32,000 nucleotides of DNA from Methanococcus maripaludis (GTDB lineage Archaea; AGJL01; Methanococci; Methanococcales; Methanococcaceae), in NCBI RefSeq assembly GCF_002945325.1, contig NZ_CP026606.1, positions 210,001-242,000 of the forward strand, written 5' to 3'. A model generated the notes under the pieces. It searched no databases. It worked only from the letters and a program-made list of their open reading frames with translations, and was not told where the DNA came from. Shown here one piece after another: positions 2,651-19,928 of the stretch (positions within the stretch are counted from its first letter, which is position 1; each line of letters opens with the position of its first letter). The translations under genes and the position numbers were made by a program.

Positions 2651-2822
2651 AAAATCATATAGCAAAGTATATATATCATTATTCGTATAAACCGCTCTCC
2701 GTACTCCAAATCATATATATAATTATAATTAGTCTTCTTTACGGGAGAAAAGTATTTATATGAGTTTTTACAATATAAAAGTGTGAAAAGAAGTGCATGG
2801 AATTGCACAGGTGTATAATTTA

Positions 2823-3035
2823 ATGAACGAAGTTTTTAAAAATAACGAATTATATTCGTCAAAAGAAGTGTGTGAAACATTAAAAATTAGTATAAGAACC
2901 TTACGAAATTGGACTAAATTCGGAAAAATTGAATATCTTGAATTTAATGGAATTCATCGATTTCTTGGAAAAAATTTGAATGAAATTGCTGTAAAAAGAA
3001 ACTGTTTTATCAAAAACGGTGAGGTAGATGATTAA
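2823..3035 (+). CDS. excisionase/MerR-like helix-turn-helix DNA-binding protein
   Basis: The track starts at GTG 2793. ATG 2823 follows AGGTG. YSSKEVCETLKISIRTLRNWTKFGKIEYLEFNGIHRFLGKNL fits the Xis-type HTH pattern (L-x-x-x-E-x-x-x-x-L-x-h-S-x-x-T-h-x-x-W ... G-x-x-x-h). Its stop overlaps the start of the replication gene. Confidence 0.6.
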   Translation: MNEVFKNNELYSSKEVCETLKISIRTLRNWTKFGKIEYLEFNGIHRFLGKNLNEIAVKRNCFIKNGEVDD

Positions 3036-5544: not shown

Positions 5545-5580
5545 ATATACTTTTTTATTTTTTTTATATCGATTATTGAT

Positions 5581-6083
5581 TTGTAACCAGTTTTTTACGG
5601 GCTTAGAATGGTTATTTTCTAAAATGAAAGAATATCTTATCATTATTCTTTTTTCCAATATTTTGTAACCGGTTTGTAACCAGTTTTTGTTACATTTGTA
5701 ACCACTTTTTTGAGAACGTAGAGTGGTTATTTTTTAATTTAAAGACCATTTATTTATTTTAATTTTTTGTAACTAAAAATATATAATAAATTGATATTAA
5801 AAAAAATTAAATGTGAAAATACAAAATTGAATTATAAAATATATTTTTTAAAAAAAAAGTAATTTTCCCACTTTTTTGGTTACAAATTTTTTAAATCCCT
5901 AATCTTCCTTAGAATGGACTATACTCTTTAGAATGAACCCCTTTTTGTAACCATTTTTTGGTTACAAAATGGTTACAAAATGGTTACAAAAATTATAAAT
6001 TTTTTTAAATCCCTAATCTTCCTTAGAATGAACTTTACTCCTTAGAATGAACTCTTTTTTGTAACCATAATTTTGGTTACAAA
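5581..6083. repeat. iteron field (TTGTAACC / GGTTACAA) with two ~85-bp direct repeat units; candidate replication origin
   Basis: The 8-mer or a close variant occurs at 5581, 5663, 5674, 5697, 5767 (variant), 5878, 5945, 5960, 5971, 5982, 6059 and 6075. Repeat units at about 5885-5967 and 5998-6083 both read aatttttt(t)aaatccctaatcttccttagaatg...cttagaatgaac...tttttgtaacca...ttttggttacaaa. Confidence 0.75.
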
Positions 6084-6090
6084 TTTTAAT

Positions 6091-6239
6091 CGTGTCACGT
6101 TTTTATTTTTCTCCCCTTTCCCCCTCAAAATCAATAATTATAATAATATATAATAGTATTACAAAATTTAATTAAAAGAGTAAATATTAATATTATTAAT
6201 AACAATATTAATAATATAAAATCACGGATCCGTGTTTTT
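6091..6239. other. near-pure A/T tract (about 6128-6221) bracketed by two short GC hairpins, each followed by TTTTTATTTTTCT; candidate DNA-unwinding element
   Basis: cgtgtcacg+tttttatttttct at 6091-6112 and cacggatccgtg+tttttatttttct at 6223-6247. The sequence between them is almost entirely A/T (aatattaatattattaataacaatattaataatataaaat). Confidence 0.45.
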
Positions 6240-6287
6240 ATTTTTCTATAATTGTTCTTTCCACGAGAGGAAGAACAGGTGGTGGTA

Positions 6288-6590
6288 ATGTTAGGATTAG
6301 CAAGTAAGTTTGCAGAAAAAATGCTTTCAAATAAAGGACAATCCGTTCAAGTGACGGTTATTGAGGTTCTTGTTATTATTGTTACACTTTATGTTGCAAT
6401 GATTGTTTTAGGTTCATTAGAACCAGTTATGGATTCGGCAATTAATGATTCCAGCAACCTTGCAGGAGCGAAAGATTCCTTGACCACAAACACAGGTTCA
6501 GCATTTACAATTGGTGCAATCATACCTTTAATTGTGTTTGCGATGGCAGTTATCGGAGTTATTGCTAATGTATTCGGCGGACAGGAGTAA
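6288..6590 (+). CDS. small protein with two hydrophobic helices and a polar S/T/N linker; candidate spindle-virus-type (SSV1 VP1-like architecture) major capsid/membrane protein
   Basis: The track starts at TTG 6252. ATG 6288 follows GGTGGTGGTA. Sequence: MLGLASKFAEKMLSNKGQSVQ-VTVIEVLVIIVTLYVAMIVLGSLEPVMDSAI-NDSSNLAGAKDSLTTNTGSAF-TIGAIIPLIVFAMAVIGVIANVF-GGQE. It is the first gene of the membrane-protein block. Confidence 0.55.
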   Translation: MLGLASKFAEKMLSNKGQSVQVTVIEVLVIIVTLYVAMIVLGSLEPVMDSAINDSSNLAGAKDSLTTNTGSAFTIGAIIPLIVFAMAVIGVIANVFGGQE

Positions 6591-7013
6591 TTTACAATTG
6601 GGGAGTGATGTTTTCCCCCCAAATGAACCGTAAAATTTAAACAATTTTTGTATTCATTCACTTTTCACCTTATTTTTATAAAAAAAGGATAAAAAATTGA
6701 AAAAAATGATATAAAGAAATATTAATTTTTTTCAATTTTCCTTTAAATTTTAAAAAAATTTACAAATTGGGGATGATTGTTTTCTCCCTTTGACAAAAAT
6801 AATATTATTAATACATTTCCAAATATTAGGACGAGAAGAAGTAATTTTCTATTTAATAGAAAATTATGTTTTTCTTTAAAAAAAGAAACTTTTTTATGAA
6901 TAATTTTAAATTTTAAAGATCGCTATGATCTGCGTTCCCATTTTCAAGATCGTTTAATATATATAGTCCTTTAGACACATTTTTTATTATAAATTAAAAA
7001 GGGGGCGAGGATT

Positions 7014-7340
7014 ATGAAGTGTTTTCCGATACCAGATGGAAAAATAAAAGCATTTCCGATAAAAACTTCTGAAAAGTCAAAAAAACCACAAAATAATGTT
7101 CAACAACCACAAGAACGAGTTATTGAACGAGTTATTGTTCCTGAAAGGATTATTGAACGACCAGTTGAAAGGATTGTTGAGGTTCCAGTTGAGAGGGTGG
7201 TTGAAAAACCAATATATCAGAACCGACAAAATCCAATGTCAAACGCGGTAAAAACAATTGGTTTGGTGATAGTTTCCACATATATCGTTTTATCCTTATT
7301 GGGTTTGGATTTGCCAACGTTAATTTCATTTTTTAGATAA
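7014..7340 (+). CDS. tail-anchored membrane protein with tandem (P)VER(I/V)(I/V)E repeats
   Basis: SD GGGGGCGAGG lies before ATG 7014. The central run ERVIERVIVPERIIERPVERIVEVPVERVVEKP is encoded at about 7113-7209. The C-terminal TM segment is AVKTIGLVIVSTYIVLSLLGLDLPTLISFF. Confidence 0.65.
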   Translation: MKCFPIPDGKIKAFPIKTSEKSKKPQNNVQQPQERVIERVIVPERIIERPVERIVEVPVERVVEKPIYQNRQNPMSNAVKTIGLVIVSTYIVLSLLGLDLPTLISFFR

Positions 7341-7539
7341 TAAATTTTATTTTTTTTTAGAAAAATATATTTATTAATTTAAATTTATAAAATAATACCA
7401 TTCTTTTTTCAATTTATATATATAAGATTATTTATTCATACATATATTAATAATAGTAATACTTATATATTATTAAGACTATATATATTTTCATTGATTT
7501 TTATGGAAAAAATGTTTTAATAAAAATGGTGAGGTGGAA

Positions 7540-7821
7540 ATGCTTGGAAGTCAGAAAAATATGTCAAAAACTCAAATTATATTCATTGGATTTGGGAATA
7601 TTTGTCTAACTCTTGTATATTGGTATATATTGGTTTTTATCGTTGGGCAACTTGATGTTGCTTTCTATCCATTAGTTAATGGATATACAACTTACATGGA
7701 ATGGTATCCGTATATCGTTTTATTAGTAAACTATCACCCGATCTTAATAGTTCTCTACTGTGTTGCTTGGATGTACTTTAGGGGAAACGAGGTCGATGCT
7801 TCAAGAAATGTGATTTATTAG
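7540..7821 (+). CDS. small integral membrane protein (2-3 TM)
   Basis: ATG 7540 follows GGTGAGGTGG (the track start GTG 7534 lies inside the SD). Hydrophobic segments: IIFIGFGNICLTLVYWYILVFIVG and YIVLLVNYHPILIVLYCVAWMYF. Confidence 0.6.
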   Translation: MLGSQKNMSKTQIIFIGFGNICLTLVYWYILVFIVGQLDVAFYPLVNGYTTYMEWYPYIVLLVNYHPILIVLYCVAWMYFRGNEVDASRNVIY

Positions 7822-7830
7822 GTGATAGAA

Positions 7831-8205
7831 ATGGGTAAGGCATGGGATATTATTATTGTTGTATTTATTTTCAATTTGGCGGTAACAGGAATTTCGAGTG
7901 TTTGTGATTATTTTGAAATTCCTTTTTCAAATCAAAGTTTTGTTCCAACTGGAAGTTCTGATTTGGTAAATCAGTTTGACAACACCTCAGAATCCGCACC
8001 CAATCAAGTGACGGAGAGTTCACTTTTTGGTGATTGGGCGTGGGCGGTTTCAATTGTTGGAACGTTATTTGGATTTTTAACAGGAAATTATAATATATGG
8101 TTAAGTTTAGGGGTGGATCCATTATTCGCGCAATTTCTGAGGGTAGTTTGCATGATGGCTAATGGATTTGCATTATTAGAAATTATTTCAAAGGTGAAAG
8201 TGTAA
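7831..8205 (+). CDS. membrane protein (N-terminal anchor plus C-terminal hydrophobic segments)
   Basis: ATG 7831 follows GGTGAT (track start GTG 7822). It abuts the previous stop at 7821. Hydrophobic segments: WDIIIVVFIFNLAVTGI and WAWAVSIVGTLFGFL. Confidence 0.6.
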   Translation: MGKAWDIIIVVFIFNLAVTGISSVCDYFEIPFSNQSFVPTGSSDLVNQFDNTSESAPNQVTESSLFGDWAWAVSIVGTLFGFLTGNYNIWLSLGVDPLFAQFLRVVCMMANGFALLEIISKVKV

Positions 8206-8217
8206 TGGTGGTGATAG

Positions 8218-8577
8218 ATGGTTAATGAAACGTTAACAATTATTAATAATACAAGAATAGCGACTTTGGATCCGCGTTTTCTCTCGGATCCTAATATCGC
8301 ACATCTAATAACTTATTTAATGACACAATTCCCCGAAATCCCTTCAATTATCTTATTTGGTGCTGGGATTTCGTGTTATATTGCAACAGGCGAAGATGAA
8401 ATGAAGACATTAATATTAGAATTTCTAATGATGTTTGTTTTTATATCAATCTTGGAAATTCCGCTTGATGTGATGGCGAGTACTCCAACGGCTTTGACGT
8501 TATTTGGGTTGAATTCGATATTTATAATTTTCATATTTGCGAAATTCTTGTTCTGTTTCACTGATACAGAACAATAA
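8218..8577 (+). CDS. integral membrane protein (about 3 TM)
   Basis: ATG follows GGTGGTGATAG. Hydrophobic segments: IPSIILFGAGISCYIA, LILEFLMMFVFISILEI and LFGLNSIFIIFIFAKFLFCF. Confidence 0.6.
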   Translation: MVNETLTIINNTRIATLDPRFLSDPNIAHLITYLMTQFPEIPSIILFGAGISCYIATGEDEMKTLILEFLMMFVFISILEIPLDVMASTPTALTLFGLNSIFIIFIFAKFLFCFTDTEQ

Positions 8578-8625
8578 ATCTTTATTTTTAATTTTAAATG
8601 GTTTTAAAACAAATGGTGGTGATAA

Positions 8626-11600
8626 ATGGCAATTAGAAGTGGAGAAACACATTATGATAGTGATGGAAATGCTTATAGAGTTAGTGGAAGTACAGCGACA
8701 AAAATTGGTGATTCTTCCGGTGCAAAATATAAAACTTCATCAATTAACGTGAAGGCAGGAAGTAATGGAAGTTCTTCAAAATCAAATTCAAGTTCTTCAA
8801 ATTCTACATCGATAGAATCCATAAAAAAAGATTTGGCAAGTGGAAAGCGTTCAACTGGTGCAAATTCAAACGTTGCAACGGCAAACGGAAAAGTTTTTCA
8901 AAATTTAAAAAATAAATATGGTCTTGATAAAGCGAAAGAACTCTACAATTCATATAAGAGAAATATTCTAACGGCAAAACAAGAATTAGAGAACGAGCAA
9001 AACGCAAAAATCCAAAAGGTAATTGAAAAAAGATATTCAAAAATTGGAACAAGCGGAAAAAATTACAAATCATCAATAAACGAAGTAATTCTTGATAAAG
9101 AAGGAAATATTGTCGCACTTAGAAACAAGAAATCCGGTCAAATTGTGGCAGGATCCGGTGTCGCTTACGGTGGACAAGCAGAAAAGAATTATAAAAAATG
9201 GGGATTATCAAAGCAATTAGATAATGCCATTGATAATGTCAACAATAAAAGAGAAAATCAATATAATCAAGATTTGAAGTTTACAAATTCGATAACAATT
9301 ACCCCATCAATGCACCAAATAGAAAAGGACGGAAAACTCTACATCTATGATCATAATGAAGATGGAACGTTTTCAACTTATATTATCAATAAAAATCAAT
9401 CAAGATACAATAATGGAACCATAGAGTTTACAGATAACGCTATTCTCGAAAACGCAGGAGAATATCAAAAAGATTACACGAAATTAAATGATATTCTTAA
9501 TGAGAGGTACACATCGGGAAACGAGTACACCGGAAGGATTTCCTTATTTGATATCGCAAAAGAACAGGGTGTATCACTTCAAATTGACCAACAAGGGGAT
9601 AAAACAGTTTTGTATGATTCCACAGGAACGATTTATGGAATTTACAATTCTGATGATATAGAAATTAAAGGATTGAATATTTACACCAAAAACGATGATT
9701 ATATTTATTCTTCTTCTAAATTAGAAACCGAAGGATTTGTAAATCCAGTAACTAAGGAAGAAATGAAATATTATGTAAATAATAAAGGAGAAAAACTAAT
9801 AATTAATAAAAAAGATGAAAATACTTACAAATATCAAGACGATATGGAACCAGTTGAGAAATTAAAACAATTAGAAATGGATATAATCTCAAACCCCAAA
9901 GAAACCATCAAAAGAGGAGTTTCATATTTGGGGGATAAATTCAATATAAATTCAAAATACACCGATGTTGCAAATAAGGGAGTCAATTATCTTAATGTTT
10001 TTGGAACGGAAGATGTTGGACAGATTGAAGGAAAAATAAGAAATATTGATACAAAAGATACGGTAACCACGAGAGGATTAAATACAGTTGGTGGAATAGC
10101 CGTTGGTCTAACTGATTTAACTGTTGGTACTGGTTACGCGATCTATAAGGATTCAAAAAATAATAGAAAAAATAATGTGGTTTTAACCCAAAAAGATCGA
10201 TATTTGGGAAATGCAGGAAGTTCTATTCTCTCAACACATGGAAAAACTATGGCGGTTGGGATGGTTCAGCCAGTGAAAAATCTAATTGTCGATAGGGATT
10301 TTTCTATTGAAAATACTCTTGGAACCGCTTTACTTGTTGCACCCGTTCTCAAAGGTGCTGGAAAGGTGGGAAAATCCGCAATTGCAAAATCCCCAAAACC
10401 AGTATTTGAAATTGCAATTGGAAAAAACATTGCAGGAAAGACAAATTATTTCGGTGTCAAAACCGGAGTTAAAACAAGTTCAAAAATTAAAATAAATACG
10501 TTAGAAGTAGGAACAAAATCAAAAACAGGATTTAACCAGTTGGCAAAAGAAAATATCAAAGTTGATAAAAATTCAATAAGTTTTGACGATGGAATTAAAT
10601 CCGATTTGGTTATAAAATCCACAAAAGAGAGAACGGTTAAAACTAATGATAAAATAACCAATGTGAAAAATGTAGTGGATACCGAAGGAAACAAATTATC
10701 CAAAAAAGTAGATATTTCAAAAACCAATGAAGGTTATAAAATCGTTGGAAATGTAGCAAAAAATGATAAATTCATCAATTATAATGTAGAAACAGGAAAG
10801 AACTTTATAAATCGAGATTTTTATAATTCTAACAAATATGGAACGAGATATAATTTCAATAATGTTAAAATATTGAAAGATAAATCAAAACTTTATGAAA
10901 AATCCGATTTGAATTCAAATAAGCATATAGATTTGAAAAAAATTAAAAATAAAGAATATATGAAAGAGAATTATCAAGAAGTTAAATTTGAAGAAAATAA
11001 AAACATCAAAGGAGATTTCTCCCATAATAAAAACTCAAATTTGTATTTAGAGAATTTGAGTGGGAAGAAAATCGTTGTTAGGGGGAATAAGGGATTTATC
11101 AAAAACGGAAAATCAAAATCTATAAATAATATAATCCAAATGGGTGAGAAATATCACCTCAATGAAATAACGGGAACAAAATATGGTGCATTTAAGAAAT
11201 TAACAAGAAATAATAAAGTTTATCAACAAAAAAAGACCGTTAAAAGTGACAATCATTTAAATATAAATGATATTAGAAATAATAAAATAAAACCAGTTGG
11301 AGAAATTGAAATCACCGAGTTTGGAACCAATGAAGGATTGAAAGGAAACAATATAATAAATCTTGGTGAAAATACCGGATACGTTTCTGAAATTCAAATA
11401 AATGGTGTTGGATTGTCAAAACACAATTTCAATACTCCAATGAAGAAAAACGGTTTTATTAAAAGAGATGGATTCAAGAAAACAAATCAGAAAATCTATG
11501 AATGGAAAGAAAACGGTCAAGGAACGAAGATAATAAATGAAGAAATAATTCAAAATAGAAATTTTGCATTGAAATCACAGAAAAGAAATTCAAATACAAT

Positions 11601-12324
11601 TAAATTCAATATTAAAAATCAAATTATCGAAAAAGAAGTTTCAAAAAGTCCAAAAGCACCAAAAACAAGTTTAAATAAAACATTTAAAGAAACTAAACCG
11701 ATTTCAAAATCAAAACAAACAATACAAGTTTCAAAAACAAATAAAAATAAAATAAATACAAAAATTACAACTAAAACAAAAACAAGAACTCCAACGCTTA
11801 TTAAAAGTAAAAAGAACATCAAATCAATTAATAATAATTTAAAAATCAAAAATCCGATGAAAAAATTAAATCCAAAAGGAAAAAAAATTAAAAATCCAAA
11901 TAACTTGAAATACCCAATCGGTATGGGAACAATGGGAATTGGTGTCAACTTAGGGTTGAATTCAAAAAATAGACAAAAGAATTTGGCAAAACCATTCTTA
12001 AATACAAAAGCAAATAATTTAAGAAAACAAAAGGTTTCAGATATTCAAAGAATGAAAGTGGGAACAACTTCCCCACAAATCCAAAGATTGAAAACTGATA
12101 CCATTCAGATTTCAGATATTGGAAGTTTGGGTGGTGTATTGATTGATAGAATCGATCCGGTCGATGTTCCAATTATTAAATCAATTTCAAGAAGTGACAC
12201 AAATCCAATTTCCACAAAAGGAAATTCAAAAAGAAAAAATAATAAAATTAGAAAAACTCAAAAAGAAATTAAAAATATTAAAAAATGGAATATCGGTGGA
12301 TTTGGATCCGCGTTTTTGAAATAA
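8626..12324 (+). CDS. 1232-aa structural/adhesion or DNA-transfer protein (function unknown) with a central Gly/hydrophobic region and a very Lys-rich C-terminal third
   Basis: ATG follows GGTGGTGATAA. No obvious signal peptide. The hydrophobic/Gly-rich stretch TRGLNTVGGIAVGLTDLTVGTGYAIY ... GTALLVAPVLKGAGKVGKS is encoded at about 10072-10396. The K/N/T-rich low-complexity region is encoded at about 11630-11915. Confidence 0.7.
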   Translation: MAIRSGETHYDSDGNAYRVSGSTATKIGDSSGAKYKTSSINVKAGSNGSSSKSNSSSSNSTSIESIKKDLASGKRSTGANSNVATANGKVFQNLKNKYGLDKAKELYNSYKRNILTAKQELENEQNAKIQKVIEKRYSKIGTSGKNYKSSINEVILDKEGNIVALRNKKSGQIVAGSGVAYGGQAEKNYKKWGLSKQLDNAIDNVNNKRENQYNQDLKFTNSITITPSMHQIEKDGKLYIYDHNEDGTFSTYIINKNQSRYNNGTIEFTDNAILENAGEYQKDYTKLNDILNERYTSGNEYTGRISLFDIAKEQGVSLQIDQQGDKTVLYDSTGTIYGIYNSDDIEIKGLNIYTKNDDYIYSSSKLETEGFVNPVTKEEMKYYVNNKGEKLIINKKDENTYKYQDDMEPVEKLKQLEMDIISNPKETIKRGVSYLGDKFNINSKYTDVANKGVNYLNVFGTEDVGQIEGKIRNIDTKDTVTTRGLNTVGGIAVGLTDLTVGTGYAIYKDSKNNRKNNVVLTQKDRYLGNAGSSILSTHGKTMAVGMVQPVKNLIVDRDFSIENTLGTALLVAPVLKGAGKVGKSAIAKSPKPVFEIAIGKNIAGKTNYFGVKTGVKTSSKIKINTLEVGTKSKTGFNQLAKENIKVDKNSISFDDGIKSDLVIKSTKERTVKTNDKITNVKNVVDTEGNKLSKKVDISKTNEGYKIVGNVAKNDKFINYNVETGKNFINRDFYNSNKYGTRYNFNNVKILKDKSKLYEKSDLNSNKHIDLKKIKNKEYMKENYQEVKFEENKNIKGDFSHNKNSNLYLENLSGKKIVVRGNKGFIKNGKSKSINNIIQMGEKYHLNEITGTKYGAFKKLTRNNKVYQQKKTVKSDNHLNINDIRNNKIKPVGEIEITEFGTNEGLKGNNIINLGENTGYVSEIQINGVGLSKHNFNTPMKKNGFIKRDGFKKTNQKIYEWKENGQGTKIINEEIIQNRNFALKSQKRNSNTIKFNIKNQIIEKEVSKSPKAPKTSLNKTFKETKPISKSKQTIQVSKTNKNKINTKITTKTKTRTPTLIKSKKNIKSINNNLKIKNPMKKLNPKGKKIKNPNNLKYPIGMGTMGIGVNLGLNSKNRQKNLAKPFLNTKANNLRKQKVSDIQRMKVGTTSPQIQRLKTDTIQISDIGSLGGVLIDRIDPVDVPIIKSISRSDTNPISTKGNSKRKNNKIRKTQKEIKNIKKWNIGGFGSAFLK

Positions 12325-12332
12325 TTATTATC

Positions 12333-12349
12333 TTTTTTTACATTTTTTT
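12333..12349 (+). terminator. two T7 runs after the 1232-aa gene (archaeal oligo-T terminator candidate)
   Basis: tctttttttacattttttta lies immediately after the stop at 12324. Confidence 0.4.
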
Positions 12350-12632
12350 AATAAAATTTACAAATATTGTTTTTAACGTTTTCTTTTAATAATTTAAATG
12401 TTTTAAATGAATTCTTTTAATTATTTTATATTTTCATCATGTTTGTGGTGTGAATCGGTAGGCGTTCACATTCATATTTGTGATAGAAATTACTTTTTTT
12501 TAGAAAATTTTTTATATTGGTGTGAGTTGTATATATCATAATATATATACTTATCGAAAGATTTATATAGTATTAGTTTCAAAGACTTATAATGTAAGGA
12601 TGTGTGTATATTGACATACAGGTGATGTAAGT

Positions 12633-12836
12633 TTGGAAAGAATAGGAAATGATGGAAACTTAATTGAAGAGTTCTACTACACGATCCCACAAATCGCGAA
12701 ATTCTATAATGTTTCAAATTCTACTATTAGGAGTCTAATTAAGGAGAAAAAATTGAAAGGTCAAAAGATAGGGAAAAATTATAGAATTCTTGGAAAAAAT
12801 TTTAACGAATATTTATTTAATCAAAATAAATTTTAA
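12633..12836 (+). CDS. excisionase/MerR-like HTH protein (paralogue 2)
   Basis: TTG start lies 6 nt after AGGTGAT. YYTIPQIAKFYNVSNSTIRSLIKEKKLKGQKIGKNYRILGKNFNEYL has the same pattern as the 2823-3035 product. Confidence 0.55.
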   Translation: MERIGNDGNLIEEFYYTIPQIAKFYNVSNSTIRSLIKEKKLKGQKIGKNYRILGKNFNEYLFNQNKF

Positions 12837-12872
12837 AATGGAAGAACAATTGGATTTTTCCGGTGGTGATAA

Positions 12873-13181
12873 GTGTTTATCAATTATGAATTGTACAATG
12901 TACGTCAGATAGCAGATAGATTTAATTTAACTCCACAGGCAATTTATTATTGGATTAGATGTGGAAAATTACACTATTCAAAAAAGAATAATCGATATTC
13001 CGTGTTGGGTTATTCGATAAATCAGATAATACGAGAAAAAAATTGGAAAAAAAGAAATCAAGAATTTAAGAAAAATAAAAAATTTAAAATAAAAAATAAT
13101 TTTCAAAAAAATAATTTAAAAATCGAAAGAACTTCTTATCATTTAAAAACGTTGCAAAGGGCAACAGGTGGTGAGAATTAG
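12873..13181 (+). CDS. excisionase/MerR-like HTH protein with basic C-terminal tail (paralogue 3)
   Basis: GTG start follows GGTGGTGATAA. HTH-like segment: LYNVRQIADRFNLTPQAIYYWIRCGKLHYSKKNNRYSVLGYSINQII, followed by a K/N-rich tail. Confidence 0.55.
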   Translation: MFINYELYNVRQIADRFNLTPQAIYYWIRCGKLHYSKKNNRYSVLGYSINQIIREKNWKKRNQEFKKNKKFKIKNNFQKNNLKIERTSYHLKTLQRATGGEN

Positions 13182-13587
13182 ATACGTTGGTCAAAAAACG
13201 GTAGAGAAAAAGTCTATTGATGAAAAAATTTTAACATTAAAAAATAAAAAAGTATCATACAATATAATTTATAATAAAAATAAAGAAAGAATTAACTTTA
13301 ATTTCAAAAAAATGGAAGAATTATTGGAAGAATTGCAAAAAAAACTAAATGTAACGGAATTGAGTTCAAACGATTTAAAAATTACAAAAAAAGAATTATT
13401 AAAAGTATATTCGAATTATTTGACCTTAACGGAGAAAGAAAAAAGAATTTTTGAATTAAAAACGGAAATTCAAAAGAGAAAAAAACATCATACAATTCTC
13501 GAAATCCAACAGAAAGAAATTCCGTTGAAGATTGAAGATATTCAAAAAGAAATAATGATTCTTGAAATACAGAAAAATAGACAATGA
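13168..13587 (+). CDS. hypothetical Lys/Glu-rich coiled-coil protein
   Basis: 139-aa ORF overlapping the previous gene by 14 nt. The start is uncertain (GTG inside a GGTGGTGAG motif). Heptad-like charged sequence. Confidence 0.4.
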   Translation: MVRIRYVGQKTVEKKSIDEKILTLKNKKVSYNIIYNKNKERINFNFKKMEELLEELQKKLNVTELSSNDLKITKKELLKVYSNYLTLTEKEKRIFELKTEIQKRKKHHTILEIQQKEIPLKIEDIQKEIMILEIQKNRQ

Positions 13588-13622
13588 GGTGATGAATTAG
13601 TTTTAAAAAATGGTGATAATAA

Positions 13623-14075
13623 ATGGTAGAAATTAACGCAGATGATAGTATATGTAATGTTTGTTTGGGTTTTGGTTTGAAAATCAATCCAGAAATTGAG
13701 TATTTGAAAAATAAACCGATAGGAACGCTTTTTGGAGAATATGAAAAGTTAAAAGAAGAATTATTCTTAGAAGAAGAACTGTATTTGGAAGATCAGATAA
13801 TCCGCGATATTAATAAAGTTTTTATCGATTGGGAAAAAGAAAAAATCGATTTAATAAAAGAAATCGATTATCCGGTCAATTTCGGATCTGAAATCCTTAA
13901 AAAATACAAAAAAGAAGGAATCGAAGTTACTGAAAAATCAATTAAAAAATATAAAGAAGAAATTGAAAATCGAGAAGAACAAATGAAGGAAAGAAGATTG
14001 AAGATGAATTCAATTATGGAAAAAATAAAATTCATAAAAATTCTGATGGATTCGATAGTAGAAATAATTTATTAA
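13623..14075 (+). CDS. hypothetical Glu/Lys-rich protein with a single N-terminal CxxC
   Basis: ATG follows GGTGATAATAA. 150 aa. No recognisable catalytic motif. Confidence 0.45.
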   Translation: MVEINADDSICNVCLGFGLKINPEIEYLKNKPIGTLFGEYEKLKEELFLEEELYLEDQIIRDINKVFIDWEKEKIDLIKEIDYPVNFGSEILKKYKKEGIEVTEKSIKKYKEEIENREEQMKERRLKMNSIMEKIKFIKILMDSIVEIIY

Positions 14076-14105
14076 TAATTTATTTTATTTTTTAGGTGGT
14101 TAAAA

Positions 14106-14189
14106 ATGGTTAAAAATGGAAATACAGATGATTTATTCTTATTAAATAATTATAATTACAAATATCAAATTATATATAAAAATAAGTGA
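14106..14189 (+). CDS. possible 27-aa micro-ORF
   Basis: Not in the track. AGGTGG lies 6 nt before ATG 14106. Product: MVKNGNTDDLFLLNNYNYKYQIIYKNK. Supported only by the SD. Confidence 0.2.
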   Translation: MVKNGNTDDLFLLNNYNYKYQIIYKNK

Positions 14190-14355
14190 TTAACGGAATG
14201 AATAGTGAGGACATAGGGACATAAGTCCTTAAATGATGGAAATATTGAATATTCCGCGAGTACTATTATATAGAGTCTATAATCATTGATGGAAAAAGTG
14301 GAAATAATGGAAAAATTTGATAAAATGTGGATTTAATTCTTCACAGGTGGTGATA

Positions 14356-15390
14356 TTGCTAAGAAAAAATGAATATGATTACTGGGGCTTGGGTGCTATT
14401 GTAAAGTCCCTCGCATTTTCTAAATTAAGAAATAATTTCGATTTCCACATTGCCGTTACCGGAATCGAAGGATCTGGAAAGTCCGCACTTGCAATCGCTC
14501 TTGCTCGATTTATGGATCGGAGTTTCAATCAAAACATGAATGAAAGAATGTATTTTTCAAATGAAGCACTTCCAGATTACTTGGATTTATTAAATGAGAA
14601 CGTTGAGAAAATTGAAAACGGTTTTGAGGGTGGAACGACCGTTATTTTTGACGAAACTCAAAATATTTTCAACAGGAGAAATGCACCTACTAAGGAAAAT
14701 AAAGCATTGCTCGAAGTAATCAGAACTCAAAGAATGGCAAAAATGTGTTGCATATATGCTACACCTAACGTTTTAGAATTAGAGAATTTTTTATCCAATA
14801 GAATGGATGTAATCCTTTTTTGTTCTTCCGATAAGAAAAAGGTCTATGGAGTCACGGATACAATCACTTATGATGGAAAAGTCTACAATGGATCAAAAAA
14901 TCTTCTTTTCCAAGAGATGAAAAATCTCGATCCTCGAACATTAAAGATGTCACCGGAGAACATCATGGCTCTGTGTATGGACGGAAAATTCAGATTTGAT
15001 TTCGGGGGAAAAACGGTCTATGATGATTATATATATAATAAATACTCGTTTATTAAAGCAAAGAAAACATCAGAATTCTTCAATAATACAAAGGAAAAAA
15101 TCAATAAAAATAAACCTATAAGGGAAGAAGAAAAGGAAAGTAAATATCAAATGCTTAATTTATCAATCAAGAAATTGACTGAACTGGAAAATGATTATAT
15201 TCCCCAACATTTAGAAAAAATTGAAGATGAAATGTTTGAAGACGATTTCATCAGTCAAAAAGCAATTGCCAATTGGTTAGACGTTGGAGATGGGGCAGTT
15301 TCAAAGAAGATTGATAGAAAGAAAATTGAAAAAGTTGCTTATCAAGGAAAAAAATATATTAAGGTCAAATATTTGAGGGATTTAATTTAA
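14356..15390 (+). CDS. P-loop NTPase (Zot/pI-like or packaging-type ATPase candidate) with C-terminal Xis-like HTH
   Basis: The track starts at TTG 14317. The in-frame TTG 14356 directly follows GGTGGTGATA. Walker A: AVTGIEGSGKSALA. Walker B: TTVIFDETQ, followed by IRTQRMAKMCCIYATPN. The C-terminus ISQKAIANWLDVGDGAVSKKIDRKKIEKVAYQGKKYIKV resembles the three HTH paralogues. Confidence 0.7.
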   Translation: MLRKNEYDYWGLGAIVKSLAFSKLRNNFDFHIAVTGIEGSGKSALAIALARFMDRSFNQNMNERMYFSNEALPDYLDLLNENVEKIENGFEGGTTVIFDETQNIFNRRNAPTKENKALLEVIRTQRMAKMCCIYATPNVLELENFLSNRMDVILFCSSDKKKVYGVTDTITYDGKVYNGSKNLLFQEMKNLDPRTLKMSPENIMALCMDGKFRFDFGGKTVYDDYIYNKYSFIKAKKTSEFFNNTKEKINKNKPIREEEKESKYQMLNLSIKKLTELENDYIPQHLEKIEDEMFEDDFISQKAIANWLDVGDGAVSKKIDRKKIEKVAYQGKKYIKVKYLRDLI

Positions 15391-15431
15391 ATCCTTAATT
15401 TTTTAGTTTTATTGAAAAATGGTGGTGATAG

Positions 15432-15842
15432 TTGGAGAATTATATTAAAGTTTTTGAAAATGAGAAAATTTATTCATCTAAAGAAATAAAAAATAAAGTT
15501 TTTTTTCAAGGAAAAATTTTTATTTACGGCAAAAAGGGACAGATTTCAATTGAGAAAAAACACATTTTTAAAATTAATTTTTTAAATTTCTATTGGGGGG
15601 AACATTTAAATTTTTTATTTAACGCATATTTAACTAATATATACCGGAAAAGGAAAAATAAGGAAAAATTATTAAAGGATTTTAATATAAAAAATTATAA
15701 TATCTCTAAAAAAAATTTAAATGATGAAGATTTTGAAGAATTTAAAAAAATGTATTCTGAAAATTTAAAATATATGGAAGAAAATGGAAATTTGGAAAAA
15801 ATAAAATTAGTGGGAAAAGAAGAAAAATTGAACGGAGTTTGA
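15432..15842 (+). CDS. hypothetical Lys-rich protein
   Basis: TTG start follows GGTGGTGATAG. 136 aa. No recognisable motif. Confidence 0.4.
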   Translation: MENYIKVFENEKIYSSKEIKNKVFFQGKIFIYGKKGQISIEKKHIFKINFLNFYWGEHLNFLFNAYLTNIYRKRKNKEKLLKDFNIKNYNISKKNLNDEDFEEFKKMYSENLKYMEENGNLEKIKLVGKEEKLNGV

Positions 15843-15853
15843 GAAATAATTAA

Positions 15854-15881
15854 TTTTTTTCAAAATAACTTTTTTTAAAAT
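15854..15881 (+). repeat. left copy of the 28-bp direct repeat bracketing the three-gene cassette
   Basis: tttttttcaaaataactttttttaaaat matches 18257-18284 (tttttttcgaaataactttttttaaaat) at 27/28 positions. Confidence 0.8.
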
Positions 15882-15961
15882 GGTAAACAGGGGGGATATT
15901 ACCCAAAATTATATATGTTTTAAAAATATACAATAGTCAAATTGAGGGATATTTTTTTAGG

Positions 15962-16942
15962 ATGGGGAACATGGAAAAACAGGTTTTTTTAAATGATACT
16001 TACAATGCCTTTTTAGAGGTATTTAATACCCAAGAACAGAAGTATGTATCGAATACAACACGATTAATGAAACTTTTTATATGTACTGCGGAAGAACTGG
16101 GTAAATTAGATAATGACAAACCCATTGCTTATGGTTGGTATAACCACGGTTTGTTTTGTTTTGAATTATATAACGACATGAATTCAATTAATGAATTTAG
16201 AAAAACTATGGATGTTAATAATAATTTAAATTCTGAAAAATATGAATTAATAAAATCTATACTTAAGCGATTAAAACCTCATTTTTTAAACAATACAATT
16301 AAGTTTGATAAATATATTCATGAAGAATTACCCGATAAAGAAACAAAAAAATATTATCGTGCAGTTAATGAAATGGAATGTGGTTTTGAACGTATTCAAA
16401 ATGAAAATTCCGGTTTAGGACAATATGTTGGAGAACATGAATCAAAAAATCTTCAAAAATGTATAGGAAAACTTGAAAAAGATGTTATTATTGAATATAA
16501 TGCAGAAAAAAGAAATGATGTATTTTGGGAATATACTGATTCATTATACATAACTCTTGATAACTATGAAAATGGAGAACAAAATTTAAAAAGTACCATA
16601 AAAAATATGGGAACCATATTTACTGAAAATTTATTAAGTATAATTTCCCCATACCCTGAAACACTTTCGGGACATCCTGAACTGTTAAAAATAGAATTAA
16701 AAAAGTATGATGAAAGTTTAAAAAATAATTTTTCGAAATTTCGAATGTTTTTTAGATTTACAAAAAGTTCTAATTTTTTAAAATATGATAATTTATTAAA
16801 AGAAATCAATAATGCTGAATTTACTGAAAAAACATATAAACTTATTAATGAACATATATATCCAGAAAATTCAACAAGATTAAGGAAAGAACACGAATTT
16901 AAATCATCAAACATGAATTTAGAGTATGGGGGGGAGAAATAG
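15962..16942 (+). CDS. cassette gene 1: unknown 326-aa protein; N-terminal segment weakly resembles the SocA/Panacea (DUF4065) antitoxin pattern
   Basis: TRLMKLFICTAEELGKLDNDKPIAYGWYNHGLFCFELY compares with the Panacea-like pattern KLxKLLY...g.pl....f.aW.yGPv.pelY. The stop TAG shares its G with the GTG start of the next gene. Confidence 0.55.
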   Translation: MGNMEKQVFLNDTYNAFLEVFNTQEQKYVSNTTRLMKLFICTAEELGKLDNDKPIAYGWYNHGLFCFELYNDMNSINEFRKTMDVNNNLNSEKYELIKSILKRLKPHFLNNTIKFDKYIHEELPDKETKKYYRAVNEMECGFERIQNENSGLGQYVGEHESKNLQKCIGKLEKDVIIEYNAEKRNDVFWEYTDSLYITLDNYENGEQNLKSTIKNMGTIFTENLLSIISPYPETLSGHPELLKIELKKYDESLKNNFSKFRMFFRFTKSSNFLKYDNLLKEINNAEFTEKTYKLINEHIYPENSTRLRKEHEFKSSNMNLEYGGEK

Positions 16943-17466
16943 TGGATATATTTTTAGATAGTTGTATAATTTTTGGAAAACATATACCTAAGAATCCTCA
17001 TAATGATAATGTTAATAAATTTTATTGTTCCAACAATATTTTATCACAAACGAGCTGTGATGCAGTCAAGGATGAAGTTAATTATAAATTAAAAAAGGTT
17101 ATAATTGAAGCATATGGTGATGATGTATCAGAATTACTTTTTAGGGAAATAAGACTAGCAATCAATCATTTTTTTAAAAAAATTAATATGGTAAATTATC
17201 AAAATCATACAAATTATGATTTTATTTTTTTATATGATGAATTAGAAGACTACTTCAAAAAATTGATTACGAAAAATACTGCTGATAAAGATATATTTTC
17301 TAACGTGATAGTGTGGGGAGTAGATAAAACATTAAATAATCCCAACTTTATTACCACGGATAAAAGAGATTATACAAATAAATTTGATATAATAATTACT
17401 TCCAACAAATGCCTCAGTGCAAATAATTATCCCAATACTCCGATTAAAATTCAGATATTAAAATAA
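16942..17466 (+). CDS. cassette gene 2: PIN-like domain nuclease (toxin-like)
   Basis: GTG follows GGGGGGGAG. The acidic quartet sits in PIN-typical contexts: MDIFLDSCIIF (D6 after beta-1), AVKDEV (E45), TADKDIFSNVIVW (D115/D117), FITTDKRDY (D140). Confidence 0.55.
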   Translation: MDIFLDSCIIFGKHIPKNPHNDNVNKFYCSNNILSQTSCDAVKDEVNYKLKKVIIEAYGDDVSELLFREIRLAINHFFKKINMVNYQNHTNYDFIFLYDELEDYFKKLITKNTADKDIFSNVIVWGVDKTLNNPNFITTDKRDYTNKFDIIITSNKCLSANNYPNTPIKIQILK

Positions 17467-17489
17467 ATTTTAGTTTTGAGGGGAGCATA

Positions 17490-18200
17490 TTGGATGAAAA
17501 TGTAAAAAGATTGGAAAATGTAGTTGAAAAAAACATAGACTATCTATATCGTGATTTGGAGTATACTACTACAAAATATAATTACTATGACACAAAAATA
17601 TCAAACAATTGTAATCTAATCTTAAAAATTTATGCACTTGTTTATGGTTTAATTATTACTGCTTATGGGATTGTTGATAATATTGAATTATCTTTATGGA
17701 TATTAGCAATTGCTAATATATTTGTTTTAAATTTTGCATTAGGAATATTTAAATTTGGAAGGGTATTATGTATTCTCGGAATAGATGTAGATGTTATATT
17801 GGTAAACATAAACATGTCTTCAAAAAAAGTTTGGAATTATACTGGTGATTTATTAATTGAGTTCAATAATTCGTTATATACGTTAGTTTTTTTCGTAACT
17901 AATTTTTCAATCTATTTGCTTATTATTGCACTGATCATAAGCACCGTTTATTTAATCGCTTTTTCAGATACCTACATTTCATTAATATTATCTGATTTGA
18001 GTGAATTTTTAAAATTTTTATGTTATGGGTTAATTTGGATTTTTAATATTTATAGCATAATTGAAATAAATAAATCAAAACAAAAATATGACATACAATT
18101 AAAAAAATCCAGAATAAAAGCCGAAAAATTTTCAGAAGTTTTTGATAAAATAAGGGATGTATTACATAATCAAGAACCTGATCGAGATGAAATTGATTGA
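17490..18200 (+). CDS. cassette gene 3: multi-pass membrane protein with soluble N-terminal helix and charged C-terminal tail
   Basis: TTG follows GAGGGGAG, and there is no in-frame ATG nearby. TM candidates: LILKIYALVYGLIITAYGIV, LSLWILAIANIFVLNFALGIF, LYTLVFFVTNFSIYLLIIALIISTVYLIAF, FLKFLCYGLIWIFNIYSII. Confidence 0.55.
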   Translation: MDENVKRLENVVEKNIDYLYRDLEYTTTKYNYYDTKISNNCNLILKIYALVYGLIITAYGIVDNIELSLWILAIANIFVLNFALGIFKFGRVLCILGIDVDVILVNINMSSKKVWNYTGDLLIEFNNSLYTLVFFVTNFSIYLLIIALIISTVYLIAFSDTYISLILSDLSEFLKFLCYGLIWIFNIYSIIEINKSKQKYDIQLKKSRIKAEKFSEVFDKIRDVLHNQEPDRDEID

Positions 18201-18256
18201 ATATAAAAAGATCAGCATTAATGAAAATAATAACTTAAAATATTTTATTATAAATA

Positions 18257-18284
18257 TTTTTTTCGAAATAACTTTTTTTAAAAT
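18257..18284 (+). repeat. right copy of the 28-bp direct repeat bracketing the three-gene cassette
   Basis: See 15854-15881. Confidence 0.8.
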
Positions 18285-18492
18285 ATTTTTCTGGAAACCG
18301 GATTTAAAATTAATTTCATTTATATACTAAATGTCTTTTTTTGGGTGTCCGGACTGTAATCCGGTGTCCATTTGGTACACTTTTAATCCAAAAACAAAAA
18401 ACAACGATAAAAAACACTTGAAATTTAAAATACTCGAAAAAAACCCTACCGGATTAAAAAAAAACCTTCAAAAAAGCCGTAGATTTGAATTT

Positions 18493-18554
18493 AAAGAAAG
18501 CGCAGAGGAGGGGATTCGAACCCCCGCTTCCCAGTGGGAAACCGGATTTCAAGT
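18493..18554 (-). repeat. attR: repeat copy forming the 3' portion of the intact tRNA-Ser
   Basis: aaagaaagcgcagaggaggggattcgaacccccgcttcccagtgggaaaccggatttcaagt aligns with 563-624. Confidence 0.9.
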
Positions 18555-18587
18555 CCGGCGCCTTTGGCCAAGCTCAACCACCTCTGC
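18501..18587 (-). tRNA. tRNA-Ser (anticodon UGA), class II with long variable arm, no encoded CCA
   Basis: The reverse complement folds by hand: acceptor GCAGAGG/CCTCTGC; 3-bp D stem; anticodon stem CCGGA/TCCGG with loop CTTGAAA (anticodon TGA); variable arm TTCCC-ACT-GGGAA; T arm GGGGG-TTCGAAT-CCCCT; discriminator G. Confidence 0.9.
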
Positions 18588-18613
18588 TCGCACTTGTACT
18601 TAAGCGATTCAGC

Positions 18614-18621
18614 TATATATA
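18614..18621 (-). promoter_or_regulatory. TATA box for the tRNA-Ser gene
   Basis: tatatata lies 27-34 nt upstream of the tRNA 5' end on the minus strand. Confidence 0.5.
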
Positions 18622-18922
18622 CTTTTCTATTTTTCCGAGTTTACGGTATCGTAAAATTTGTGCGCAAACCATATTAAACGGGGTAGTGCGGATGTTTTTA
18701 AAACGGGTGTATATTTTTTTAAGTCGCATCTATTTTAGAATTTTTAATAGAAAATATATTAAAAAGTAAATACTCCAAATTCCCAAATACAAAAATCAAG
18801 TTACCCCCTAAAGCATTGTTTCAAAATCTTTTTTTCAAAGTGTTTATTTTAAAAAATAGTATCTATTATATATCTAAAAACCTAAATTATGAAAAGATTG
18901 AATAGAAACATGGGTGAAATTT

Positions 18923-19852
18923 ATGAAAAATGTTACAATTGGATTATTTGGAGATTTTGAAGACGCTGGAAAAAATATTGCAAAAAAAGGAACTTCAACA
19001 GACATTACACTTTACAATCATAAAAATGGCGACGATTCAGCAGTATTTGTCGAACCTACAAGATACCCTGAAAGAATACAGCCATTAATTTATACAATAA
19101 ATATGATGGACTACGCACTTGTTTTTATCGATGAAATAAAACCTGAAATTGGCGAAACACTTCTTACATTAGATTTATTCGGTGTCGAAAGGGGATTTAT
19201 TGTAGTTGGCGAATACGTCGATGTTGAACAGTTAAAAGGAATTATTTCAAACACTTCGATGAAAAATTTTGAATTTTTGGAAAAAGATTACATACAAATT
19301 AGAGAAAAAATGATTACAATTCCAGAAGTTGAAAAAAGTAGAGAGTTTATAAAAATACCTATTGATCACTTTTTTTCAGTAAAAAGCGTTGGAACCGTGA
19401 TTTTAGGAAAAGTTGATAAGGGAAGCGTTTCTGTGCACGATAATTTAAGGATATACCCGACAAACAATAAAGCAATGGTAAAAAGTGTTCAGGTACACGA
19501 TAGGGACGTAAAAGAAGCTGGAACAAATTCAAGAGTTGGCCTTTCATTAAAAGGAATCAGTGTTGATGATTTAGATAGAGGAATGATTCTTTCAAATGGG
19601 GAATTGGAAGTATCTGACAAAATTGAACTTGAAATGAAATGGAACCCGTACATGAATAAAGAAGTTGCTGTTGGCGAAGGATACCAGATTATTGTTGGAC
19701 TTCAAACTGTAAGCTGTAAAATTGAAGAAAAAAACGGAAACAAATTAACATTAAAACTTTTAAAACCTGCTGCTTTTGAAAAGGGCGACAAATTTATAAT
19801 GCTTGATGGAAGCGCAAAAGTTAGAATCATTGGAGTTTCAAAATACGAATAG
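18923..19852 (+). CDS. EF-Tu/EF-1A-like protein with degenerate GTPase domain (EF-Tu domain 2 family)
   Basis: ATG 18923 follows GGGTGA (track start GTG 18914). GLFGDFEDAGKNIAKKG replaces the G1 motif and FVEPTRYPE replaces DxxGH. The middle VGTVILGKVDKGSVSVHDNLRIYP is typical of the EF-Tu domain II beta-barrel. Confidence 0.65.
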   Translation: MKNVTIGLFGDFEDAGKNIAKKGTSTDITLYNHKNGDDSAVFVEPTRYPERIQPLIYTINMMDYALVFIDEIKPEIGETLLTLDLFGVERGFIVVGEYVDVEQLKGIISNTSMKNFEFLEKDYIQIREKMITIPEVEKSREFIKIPIDHFFSVKSVGTVILGKVDKGSVSVHDNLRIYPTNNKAMVKSVQVHDRDVKEAGTNSRVGLSLKGISVDDLDRGMILSNGELEVSDKIELEMKWNPYMNKEVAVGEGYQIIVGLQTVSCKIEEKNGNKLTLKLLKPAAFEKGDKFIMLDGSAKVRIIGVSKYE

Positions 19853-19928
19853 ATAATCCAAACTAACTAAAATAAAAATAAAAAATAAAATACAAAATTT
19901 CTTTTTTTAAAATTTAAAAAAAATTAAT

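Follow-up and report, generated by a model that had tools for sequence, protein, structure and literature searches.

A candidate bipartite PIN-type module with an unusually large partner protein, carried as cargo on an integrated element of Methanococcus maripaludis JJ

The 32,000-nt window, by which we mean the whole stretch of DNA analyzed here, derives from the chromosome of Methanococcus maripaludis strain JJ and contains three tightly packed, co-directional genes (15962-16942, 16942-17466 and 17490-18200, all on the forward strand) near one end of an integrated element. A sequence-only reading of the window had interpreted these genes as a tripartite toxin-antitoxin or abortive-infection system, consisting of a 326-aa protein without recognizable catalytic motif, a PIN-like nuclease, and a multi-pass membrane protein. 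The locus therefore raises the question of how many of the three genes belong to one functional module, and what such a module might do. On balance, we judge it somewhat probable that the first two genes alone form a cargo module of a new, bipartite kind, which would act as a PIN-type toxin-antitoxin or in a manner resembling abortive infection, and in which the nuclease has an atypically large partner.

All the sequence features described in the earlier reading were found where it had placed them. Gene 1 (15962-16942; 326 aa, ATG start) is followed directly by gene 2 (16942-17466; 174 aa, GTG start), and the TAG stop codon of the former (16940-16942) has one base in common with the start codon of the latter (16942-16944). 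A Shine-Dalgarno-like sequence, GGGGGGGAG, lies within the 3' end of gene 1 (16928-16936, forward strand), 5 nt ahead of the GTG, in agreement with the proposed translational coupling. Gene 3 (17490-18200; 236 aa, TTG start) begins 23 nt past gene 2 and has its own Shine-Dalgarno-like sequence, GAGGGGAG (17478-17485, forward strand). An A/T-rich, TATA-like stretch upstream of the cassette (around 15908-15931, forward strand) represents a putative archaeal promoter. A T-rich terminator-like motif, TTTTTTTCAAAATAACTTTTTTTAAAAT (15844-15881, forward strand), ends the upstream gene and delimits the cassette transcription unit on the left, and a second copy (18247-18284, forward strand) delimits it on the right. 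Gene 3 is probably co-transcribed with the other two genes in strain JJ. Both copies belong to the 38-nt repeat family D3 (copies at 15844, 18247 and 19876), whose T7 runs suggest a terminator function. The copy at 19876 lies outside the element, in host DNA, which identifies the D3 repeats as generic T-rich terminators and led us to reject insertion scars around the cassette as their origin. The NCBI annotation of gene 1 is 323 aa long and presumably starts at the ATG at 15971, from whose methionine the gene 1 homologues align.

The element itself spans about 18 kb and is inserted at a tRNA-Ser gene. This tRNA-Ser(TGA) gene (18500-18587, reverse strand; detected by ARAGORN, by the Rfam tRNA model and as repeat D4) contains attR in its 3' part. 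A displaced partial copy of the tRNA 3' end (563-624, reverse strand; repeat D4, 90% over 62 nt) represents attL, and the integrase gene of the element is located at 1590-2603. Together, these three landmarks make the cassette the final coding block before attR, from which it is separated by approximately 300 nt, just as the earlier placement at a provirus end beside an att site had proposed. The analysis supports a view of the cassette as accessory cargo, located at one end of the integrated element. An Rfam scan of positions 15000-19000 revealed no RNA element besides the tRNA.

Comparison across genomes showed that genes 1 and 2 are a conserved and mobile pair. In each of the homologous loci that were retrieved, the two genes either adjoin or overlap, and these loci come from Methanococcus, Methanothermococcus and Methanocaldococcus genomes as well as from vent metagenomes. 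A genome scan with the family alignment added one locus (L017), and a metagenome scan recovered a known one (L002) again. The 1-nt overlap of the window recurs in L002, L003 and L010, whereas other junctions consist of a 4-nt overlap (L013) or a gap of 9-15 nt (L015, L001 and L009). The identities of the two proteins to their homologues drop in parallel across the loci (44/48, 35/39, 37/38, 31/32, 29/29 and 22/25%). At least four mobile-element backbones, unrelated to one another, carry the pair; if integrases and one ATPase are set aside, the element of the window has only genes 1 and 2 in common with the other loci. Neighboring genes vary accordingly, and include those of MCM elements, of an element with a DUF87 ATPase, a methyltransferase and a resolvase, a RelE/ParE pair together with HNH, KAP NTPase and TIR genes, and an HSDR_N gene. 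Being adjacent, co-directional, co-inherited and mobile, the two genes thus have the layout of a type II toxin-antitoxin pair. In line with the original impression that this is not a named system, the three window proteins had no match at E<=1 in PADLOC-DB v2, and matches of other members of the pair families were scattered, single and inconsistent. Plasmid and phage collections contained no match to any protein searched, IMG/VR lacked relatives of gene 1, of gene 3 and of the element's ATPase, and the accessions of the cassette were absent from the supplements of omics and transposon papers on strain JJ.

Alternatively, the pair might be an accessory nuclease with a specificity or regulatory factor, which serves the mobile elements, for instance by processing RNA or DNA, in the takeover of the host or in competition between elements, and does not poison its own host. 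All loci of the pair lie on or beside integrated elements, its larger member is the partner and not the nuclease, and the polar residues conserved in the gene 1 family (E172, E182, R184, Y191 and D193) could form a functional site. In addition, the gene 2 homologue is intact in L017, where the gene 1 homologue is reduced to its last 65 codons, and it survives in L001, where a frameshift splits the gene 1 homologue. An essential antitoxin would be hard to reconcile with either locus, barring assembly artefacts or inactive toxins. Against such a service role, the place of the pair within the elements is variable and most related elements lack it, which argues that it does not perform a core function; moreover, an upstream partner gene that overlaps a PIN-like gene on mobile elements is the classical VapBC-type arrangement. 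We therefore regard this explanation as possible but unlikely, and continue with the bipartite toxin-antitoxin-like module as the preferred reading.

This reading depends strongly on the nature of gene 2. The acidic motifs noted earlier are all present, namely IFLDS (D6), KDEV (E45), ADKD (D115) and TTDKRD (D140 and D143). Across 12 family members, which are 24-49% identical to gene 2, no variation occurs at D6, E45, D115, T138, D140 and D143. The alignment has 11 invariant columns, of which five hold acidic residues that follow the order D-E-D-D, and the family shares a T-x-D-x-x-D-[YF] motif; judged from the alignment, this acidic invariance exceeds what composition alone would give. The family thereby shows the acidic pattern of the PIN superfamily (Pfam clan CL0280), which comprises three to four invariant acidic residues, namely a D behind strand 1, an E in a helix, a D at the N-terminus of a helix, and a D/E behind strand 4 with a T/S-x-D context. 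It does not belong to any Pfam family, and no PIN model reached the Pfam threshold. Sub-threshold matches were obtained to PIN (PF01850, E=0.018), PIN_4 (PF13638, E=0.032, two members), PIN_3 (PF13470, E=0.12) and PIN_2 (PF10130, E=0.18), all of them colinear, N-terminus to N-terminus. UniRef names gene 2 "PIN domain-containing protein", and source names read "PIN domain-containing" or "nucleic acid-binding protein".

Could the acidic pattern instead be convergent, or stem from another alpha/beta fold with an acidic cluster, so that the pair would have some other, wholly unknown function? The formal tests of homology and fold all remained below significance. The hhalign comparison of the gene 2 family with a VapC profile, which was built from plasmid VapCs as viral contigs gave one homologue only, yielded a probability of 0.3% with a score inside the permutation range. 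The family profile found no PIN chain among PDB sequences, and a search of NCBIfam returned nothing useful. For gene 2, AF2 produced a poor model (pLDDT 67, N-terminus unresolved), whose Foldseek matches in the PDB and BFVD were at chance level; structure prediction thus did not confirm a PIN fold, an alpha/beta/alpha arrangement in which a parallel five-stranded sheet brings the acidic residues together. On the other side, five weak colinear matches fell on four models of the PIN clan among approximately 24,700 Pfam models, and names assigned independently agree. In the extended hhalign alignment, D6 pairs with VapC D7, D115 with D98, D143 with E119, and E45 or E56 with E42, and three or more such catalytic-residue pairings occurred in only 1 of 788 column permutations. 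Furthermore, the T-x-D-x-x-D-[YF] motif, which follows a hydrophobic strand, resembles the VapC segment TNNTREF aligned to it. A non-PIN origin is thus rather improbable, and the PIN interpretation is the best available: gene 2 probably encodes a PIN-like nuclease, with fold and activity predicted from conserved sequence features.

Gene 3 does not share the history of the pair. As described originally, its product is predicted by hydropathy to be a membrane protein with four to five transmembrane stretches (approximately residues 43-62, 64-87, 89-107, 128-164 and 173-191), and both of its termini are polar. Its 90% cluster has a single member from one contig, and no homologues were found in the 16 pair-bearing loci, in IMG/VR, or in plasmid or phage collections. 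The proposal of a conserved triad thus failed when co-occurrence was surveyed in other genomes, as gene 3 has no homologue beside any of about nine independent gene 1/gene 2 pairs, whereas the conservation of the pair itself held. This absence counts against the triad and leaves the pair untouched. Joint action of all three genes in a toxin-antitoxin or abortive-infection system, in which the membrane protein would be the effector or anchor, would fit the layout of the cassette, which lies downstream of a single TATA-like stretch and is enclosed by two T-rich motifs of terminator type, as well as the Shine-Dalgarno-like sequence and short gap in front of gene 3. It would also fit L010, where a multi-pass membrane protein unrelated to gene 3 (DUF2254) is encoded downstream of the pair in the same orientation. 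However, the membrane gene is missing from L015, although the two loci share their backbone, and the genes downstream of the pairs are mutually unrelated and mostly encode soluble proteins or lie on the opposite strand. The tripartite interpretation is therefore largely refuted and, in our view, very unlikely. By the sequence comparisons made, gene 3 is a strain-specific ORFan and not part of a conserved module, which returns the argument to the bipartite reading and to its larger component.

Eight homologues of gene 1 were found, and this component, a putative antitoxin, regulator or sensor, is modular. An N-terminal "AYGWY" domain precedes the C-terminal module, which is constant in the family (approximately residues 103-300), and the alignment contains the invariant residues G58, Y60, I168, E172, Y191 and D193. 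The family comprises a short (270-326 aa) and a long (422-435 aa) size class, which have only the C-terminal module in common; this module thus appears to be fixed, while the N-terminal domains appear to be swappable. The AF2 model is all-helical but mediocre (pLDDT 70), and its Foldseek matches in the PDB and BFVD were at chance level. Pfam scans of 10 family members, a profile search of PDB sequences, which returned noise, and Foldseek all gave no match of gene 1 to a known antitoxin or DNA-binding family; specifically, AbrB, RHH, PHD and HTH folds were absent from the Pfam and structural matches. Pfam, PDB-sequence profile and structure searches likewise matched gene 1 to no catalytic family. 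A reversal of roles, in which toxicity or enzymatic activity would reside in gene 1 and the PIN-like protein would be its regulator or antidote, could draw on the invariant polar residues of gene 1 and on the inverted gene order of some toxin-antitoxin families, but is highly improbable given that gene 1 has no catalytic-family match and that PIN domains act as toxins or nucleases, with none known to us as an antidote.

One distant relationship emerged for gene 1. The 324-aa partner in L009, which stands beside the most distant relative of gene 2, carries a precomputed DUF8098 (PF26400) assignment and matches gene 1 in BLASTP with E=1e-6 over 236 residues. A second partner protein, adjoining P0015, shows a faint DUF8098 match. 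No such assignment is recorded for gene 1 or its close relatives, and the Pfam copy that we scanned misses the domain even in the L009 partner. Gene 1 therefore appears to be distantly related to a DUF8098 protein. We found no paper that mentions DUF8098, and the function of this family is not known.

Taken together, these results suggest the following model. As bipartite cargo, the pair would move from one integrated plasmid or provirus to another within the Methanococcales. The product of gene 2 would be a metal-dependent nuclease of divergent PIN-like type, which most likely acts on RNA, with a Mg2+ site formed by the acidic residues D6, E45, D115 and D143 together with T138 and D140. Owing to the overlapping stop and start codons, gene 1 would be produced in step with gene 2, and its constant C-terminal module would most likely bind the nuclease and keep it inactive, while the exchangeable N-terminal domain would most likely serve in DNA binding for autoregulation or in sensing a trigger. 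Loss or inactivation of the partner, which could follow loss of the element or take place upon infection, would free the nuclease to cut RNA and arrest growth, and would thereby stabilize the element or abort the infection. Gene 3 would be an unrelated ORFan and a chance member of the transcription unit in strain JJ. Within this model, the anatomy of the locus, the conservation and mobility of the pair and its invariant acidic residues are observations, and the PIN fold, the nuclease activity, the toxicity, its neutralization and the biological role are predictions. A more specific variant, which we put forward tentatively, is an undescribed archaeal PIN-based conflict module that acts by sensor-coupled abortive infection rather than simple addiction, with the C-terminal module as a clamp and the exchangeable N-terminal domains as sensors of viral or plasmid cues.

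To our knowledge, few archaeal toxin-antitoxin or defense modules have been tested by experiment. Neither the nuclease nor the close relatives of its partner belong to a Pfam family, no PADLOC model matches the pair, and it moves among different methanogen mobile elements. Genetic tools are available for M. maripaludis JJ, and toxicity, neutralization and defense can therefore be tested directly. If the model is correct, it would add a large-partner architecture to the PIN-type modules and provide a function for DUF8098-related proteins. The fate of the triad also illustrates that a tight operon layout by itself over-predicts the number of system components.

Known three-component systems of the toxin-antitoxin or abortive-infection kind that use a membrane effector resemble the cassette in having three co-directional genes in one apparent transcription unit, the last of which encodes a multi-pass membrane protein. 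They differ in the co-occurrence of all three genes that defines them, as the pair described here is conserved without the third gene. AbiE (AbiEi/AbiEii) and Panacea (DUF4065/SocA-like) modules contain large antitoxins of about 200-300 aa with two domains, encoded upstream of the toxin, and gene 1 is likewise a large upstream partner. The toxin of AbiE is a nucleotidyltransferase and not a PIN protein, in contrast to PIN-like gene 2. The N-terminal helices and hairpin of gene 1, with the motif "TRLMKLF...AYGWYxxG", are reminiscent of the Panacea N-terminal motif, a resemblance that we treat only as a lead. A Panacea domain was nevertheless dropped as an assignment, as DUF4065 (PF13274) had no match at E<=1 in 10 family members and a similar 286-aa protein from L017, nor did AbiEi in the gene 1 family, and the hhalign probability with the L017 protein was 7%. 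The closest comparison is with VapBC, a type II system in which the PIN toxin VapC is preceded by the antitoxin VapB, commonly as overlapping pairs on mobile elements. In the pair described here, the upstream partner gene also overlaps the PIN-like gene, the D-E-D-D acidic residues of gene 2 are placed at the catalytic positions of VapC (D7, E42, D98 and E119) by the extended alignment, and the two genes are distributed patchily on mobile elements. The gene 2-type proteins, at 168-205 aa, differ from VapC by a middle region about 15 aa longer and by scores below the threshold of every PIN model. The partner differs as well: VapB is a small antitoxin of about 70-90 aa with a recognized DNA-binding fold, whereas gene 1 (326 aa) belongs to a family of all-helical proteins of 270-435 aa that match none of the AbrB, RHH, PHD or HTH folds.

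The cassette comprises three tightly packed genes that are read in the same direction on the plus strand, as recognized in the sequence-only reading. Gene 1 (15962-16942, 326 aa, protein AVB75652) and gene 2 (16942-17466, 174 aa, GTG start, AVB75653) overlap by 1 nt, base 16942 being common to the TAG stop of the former and the GTG start of the latter, and GGGGGGGAG lies upstream of this GTG at 16928-16936. Gene 3 (17490-18200, 236 aa, TTG start, AVB75654) starts after a gap of 23 nt, in which GAGGGGAG occupies 17478-17485. By hydropathy, its product has four to five hydrophobic stretches of transmembrane length with polar termini on both sides, in agreement with its earlier description as a 4-5-TM protein. 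The NCBI annotation of gene 1 has 323 aa, which would place the start three codons later, at 15971; gene 1 homologues align from the methionine at this position. A T-rich motif flanks the cassette (15844-15881 and 18247-18284), and a third copy is present at 19876-19913. Because this copy sits in host DNA outside the element, we rejected the flanking repeats as insertion scars and read the motifs as ordinary terminators. The motif, TTTTTTTCRAAATAACTTTTTTTAAAAT, recurs downstream of three genes, including one that is not part of the element, and is probably a terminator of a generic archaeal type. With these motifs and a TATA-like stretch near 15908-15931, a single three-gene transcript is plausible. 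An antisense ORF of 116 aa within gene 1 (16564-16914, minus strand) is probably a by-product of the A/T-rich sequence.

Comparison of homologous loci revealed a conserved pair formed by genes 1 and 2. Homologues of gene 1 fall into eight clusters and those of gene 2, in an exhaustive HMMER search, into nine. A gene 1 homologue lies directly upstream of the gene 2 homologue in all nine contexts read as DNA, which come from Methanocaldococcus sp. 10A (locus L001), vent metagenomes (L002, L003-5, L006-8, and L009), M. maripaludis strains (L010-12 and L015-16), M. voltae (L013-14), and a Methanothermococcus single-cell genome (L017). We regard the pair as largely confined to Methanococcales. The two genes overlap by 1 nt in the window, L002, L003, and L010 and by 4 nt in L013, and are separated by 9-15 nt in L015, L001, and L009; the identities of both proteins drop in parallel, locus by locus. 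In one further context, the contig of the gene 2 homologue P0015 (genes at 166-624 and 1506-2423), a DUF8098-like partner is adjacent to the gene 2 homologue, but convergent with it and overlapping it rather than upstream. A 152-aa neighbour on this contig has a weak match to PycTM, the Pycsar TM effector.

The proposal of a tripartite system did not survive this survey: genes 1 and 2 co-occur across loci, but all three genes do so only in short assemblies identical to the window. No gene 3 homologue was found in any pair-bearing locus compared, and a different gene follows the pair each time (DUF3467, a RelE/ParE pair, DUF2254, soluble unknowns, or opposite-strand genes). Gene 3 forms a cluster of one member on one contig, and no relatives were found in the IMG/VR, plasmid, or phage collections.

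In the window, the cassette is the last coding block before attR of an integrated element of about 18 kb (624-18493), consistent with its earlier placement at an element end beside att. The element resides in the tRNA-Ser(TGA) gene (18500-18587, minus strand), whose 3' part is copied at 563-624 (62 nt, 90% identical); the att repeats span 563-624 and 18493-18587. It encodes a tyrosine integrase (1590-2603), a primase/DUF5906 helicase (3028-5544), a 1232-aa ORF (8626-12324), and an AAA/Zot-like ATPase (14317-15390). Methanococcal elements of the pT26-2 family integrate into tRNA-Ser and have variable regions rich in ORFans (PMC6972569). Downstream of the primase-helicase gene, two direct repeats of 87 nt (5884-6084, 85% identical, 114 nt apart) resemble iterons or an origin of replication; each has CTTAGAATGRAC as a recurring box, together with an inverted repeat, TTTTGTAACC/GGTTACAAAA. 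A 48-nt repeat (71%) with the exact common core GGATTTGGATCCGCGTTTT occurs near the start of the ORF at 8218-8577 (8233-8280) and at the 3' end of the 1232-aa ORF (12269-12316). In three element genes, the conserved motif AATGGTGGTGATAnnTGG extends across the start codon (8204-8226, 8612-8634, and 15418-15440); it is probably a common ribosome-binding context (GGTGAT).

If integrases and one ATPase are set aside, the only proteins of this element with relatives in the other loci are those of genes 1 and 2. The backbones there include integrase, MCM, DUF2080, and MarR elements, an element with a DUF87-ATPase, an N6/N4 methyltransferase, and a resolvase, and a site beside an ABC transporter, and the placement of the pair inside elements varies. 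The pair is cargo rather than a core function of the element, which speaks against the refuting case named in the sequence-only reading, that of conserved virion or replication components. Conflict genes are frequent neighbours: RelE/ParE and HNH in L013 (10780-12619), HSDR_N in L002, and a KAP NTPase and a TIR-HATPase protein in L015 (11538-13637 and 20184-20606). The surroundings in L013 and L015 are defence-island-like.

The assignment of gene 2 as PIN-like is most likely right. Gene 2 had no match among Pfam, PHROG, and PADLOC models, its family profile found no PIN chain among PDB sequences, and its mediocre AF2 model, built from 8 sequences (pLDDT 67, residues 1-21 below 50), retrieved nothing from PDB or BFVD with Foldseek. 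With hhalign, the family reached a probability of 0.3% against a profile of Shigella VapC (verified against 3TND) and plasmid homologues. On the other side, 11 columns are invariant in 12 sequences, five of them acidic (D6, E45, D115, D140, and D143), and T138 is also invariant. The weak matches of five members include four PIN-clan models (PIN, PIN_2, PIN_3, and PIN_4), each aligning protein N-terminus on model N-terminus. As reasoned from E-values, and with related members whose matches are not fully independent, this is far above chance for a clan that makes up a very small share of 24,736 models. The extended hhalign alignment runs to VapC end to end, pairing FLD(6) with MLD(7), D115 with D98, and T138-x-D140-x-x-D143-Y with T114-N-N-x-x-E119-F, while VapC E42 falls on E45 or E56 depending on settings. 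Among 788 column permutations, a single one gave at least three catalytic pairings, although the total score was unremarkable. Members are named "PIN domain-containing" or "nucleic acid-binding protein" in UniRef and IMG. On this evidence, gene 2 is likely to be PIN-like.

The AF2 model of gene 1 (pLDDT 70) consists of helices except for a hairpin at an invariant AYGWY motif. Foldseek retrieved only generic helical bundles, and Pfam gave no match at a meaningful level for 10 family members. Next to the most distant relative of gene 2 is a partner that bears a precomputed DUF8098 assignment and aligns with gene 1 over 236 residues (E=1e-6); DUF8098 is not mentioned in the literature searched. 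Of the partners, those of a short class (270-326 aa) have the AYGWY N-domain and those of a long class (422-435 aa) an unrelated N-terminal half; the two classes share only a module corresponding to gene 1 residues 103-300 approximately. Because this module always accompanies the PIN-like protein, we infer that it makes the contact with the nuclease. The N-terminal domains would then be interchangeable parts for regulation or sensing. L017 contains a second overlapping pair (1082-2466, minus strand; 286 aa and 174 aa) adjoining the gene 2 homologue. Its 286-aa protein has an N-terminus (KTHLQKEMFL...YEAYHYGPYS) that resembles the gene 1 motif TRLMKLF...AYGWYNHGLF, and hhalign aligns the two regions, but with a probability of 7%. 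A related partner domain for a different effector may be present here.

The comparisons show the anatomy, conservation, and mobility of the pair, while its activity, toxicity, and neutralisation are inferred. We propose that the pair works along VapBC-like lines, with a partner that is atypical. Translational coupling would yield balanced quantities of the PIN-like RNase and of a large helical protein acting as its inhibitor or regulator; once this partner is lost or inactivated, the nuclease would be freed and growth arrested, which would stabilise the element or abort infection. Two loci are awkward for this inhibitor-release reading, each with an intact gene 2 homologue. In L017 (1-522), the gene 1 homologue is cut to its last 65 codons and abutted by an opposite-strand ORF, which may reflect a single-cell assembly chimera. 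In L001 (9883-10813), a frameshift near the 5' end splits the gene 1 homologue into ORFs of 42 and 270 aa.

No system in PADLOC matches the pair; in the sequence-only reading, the three-gene combination was likewise not recognized as a named system. The genetic tractability of strain JJ adds to the value of the pair. With AbiE and Panacea systems, the pair has in common only that a large antitoxin, here a putative one, is encoded upstream, and both were negative when tested with Pfam. The closest known kind is VapBC, from which the pair differs in the size and fold of the partner; its PIN-like protein, moreover, goes unrecognized by current models.
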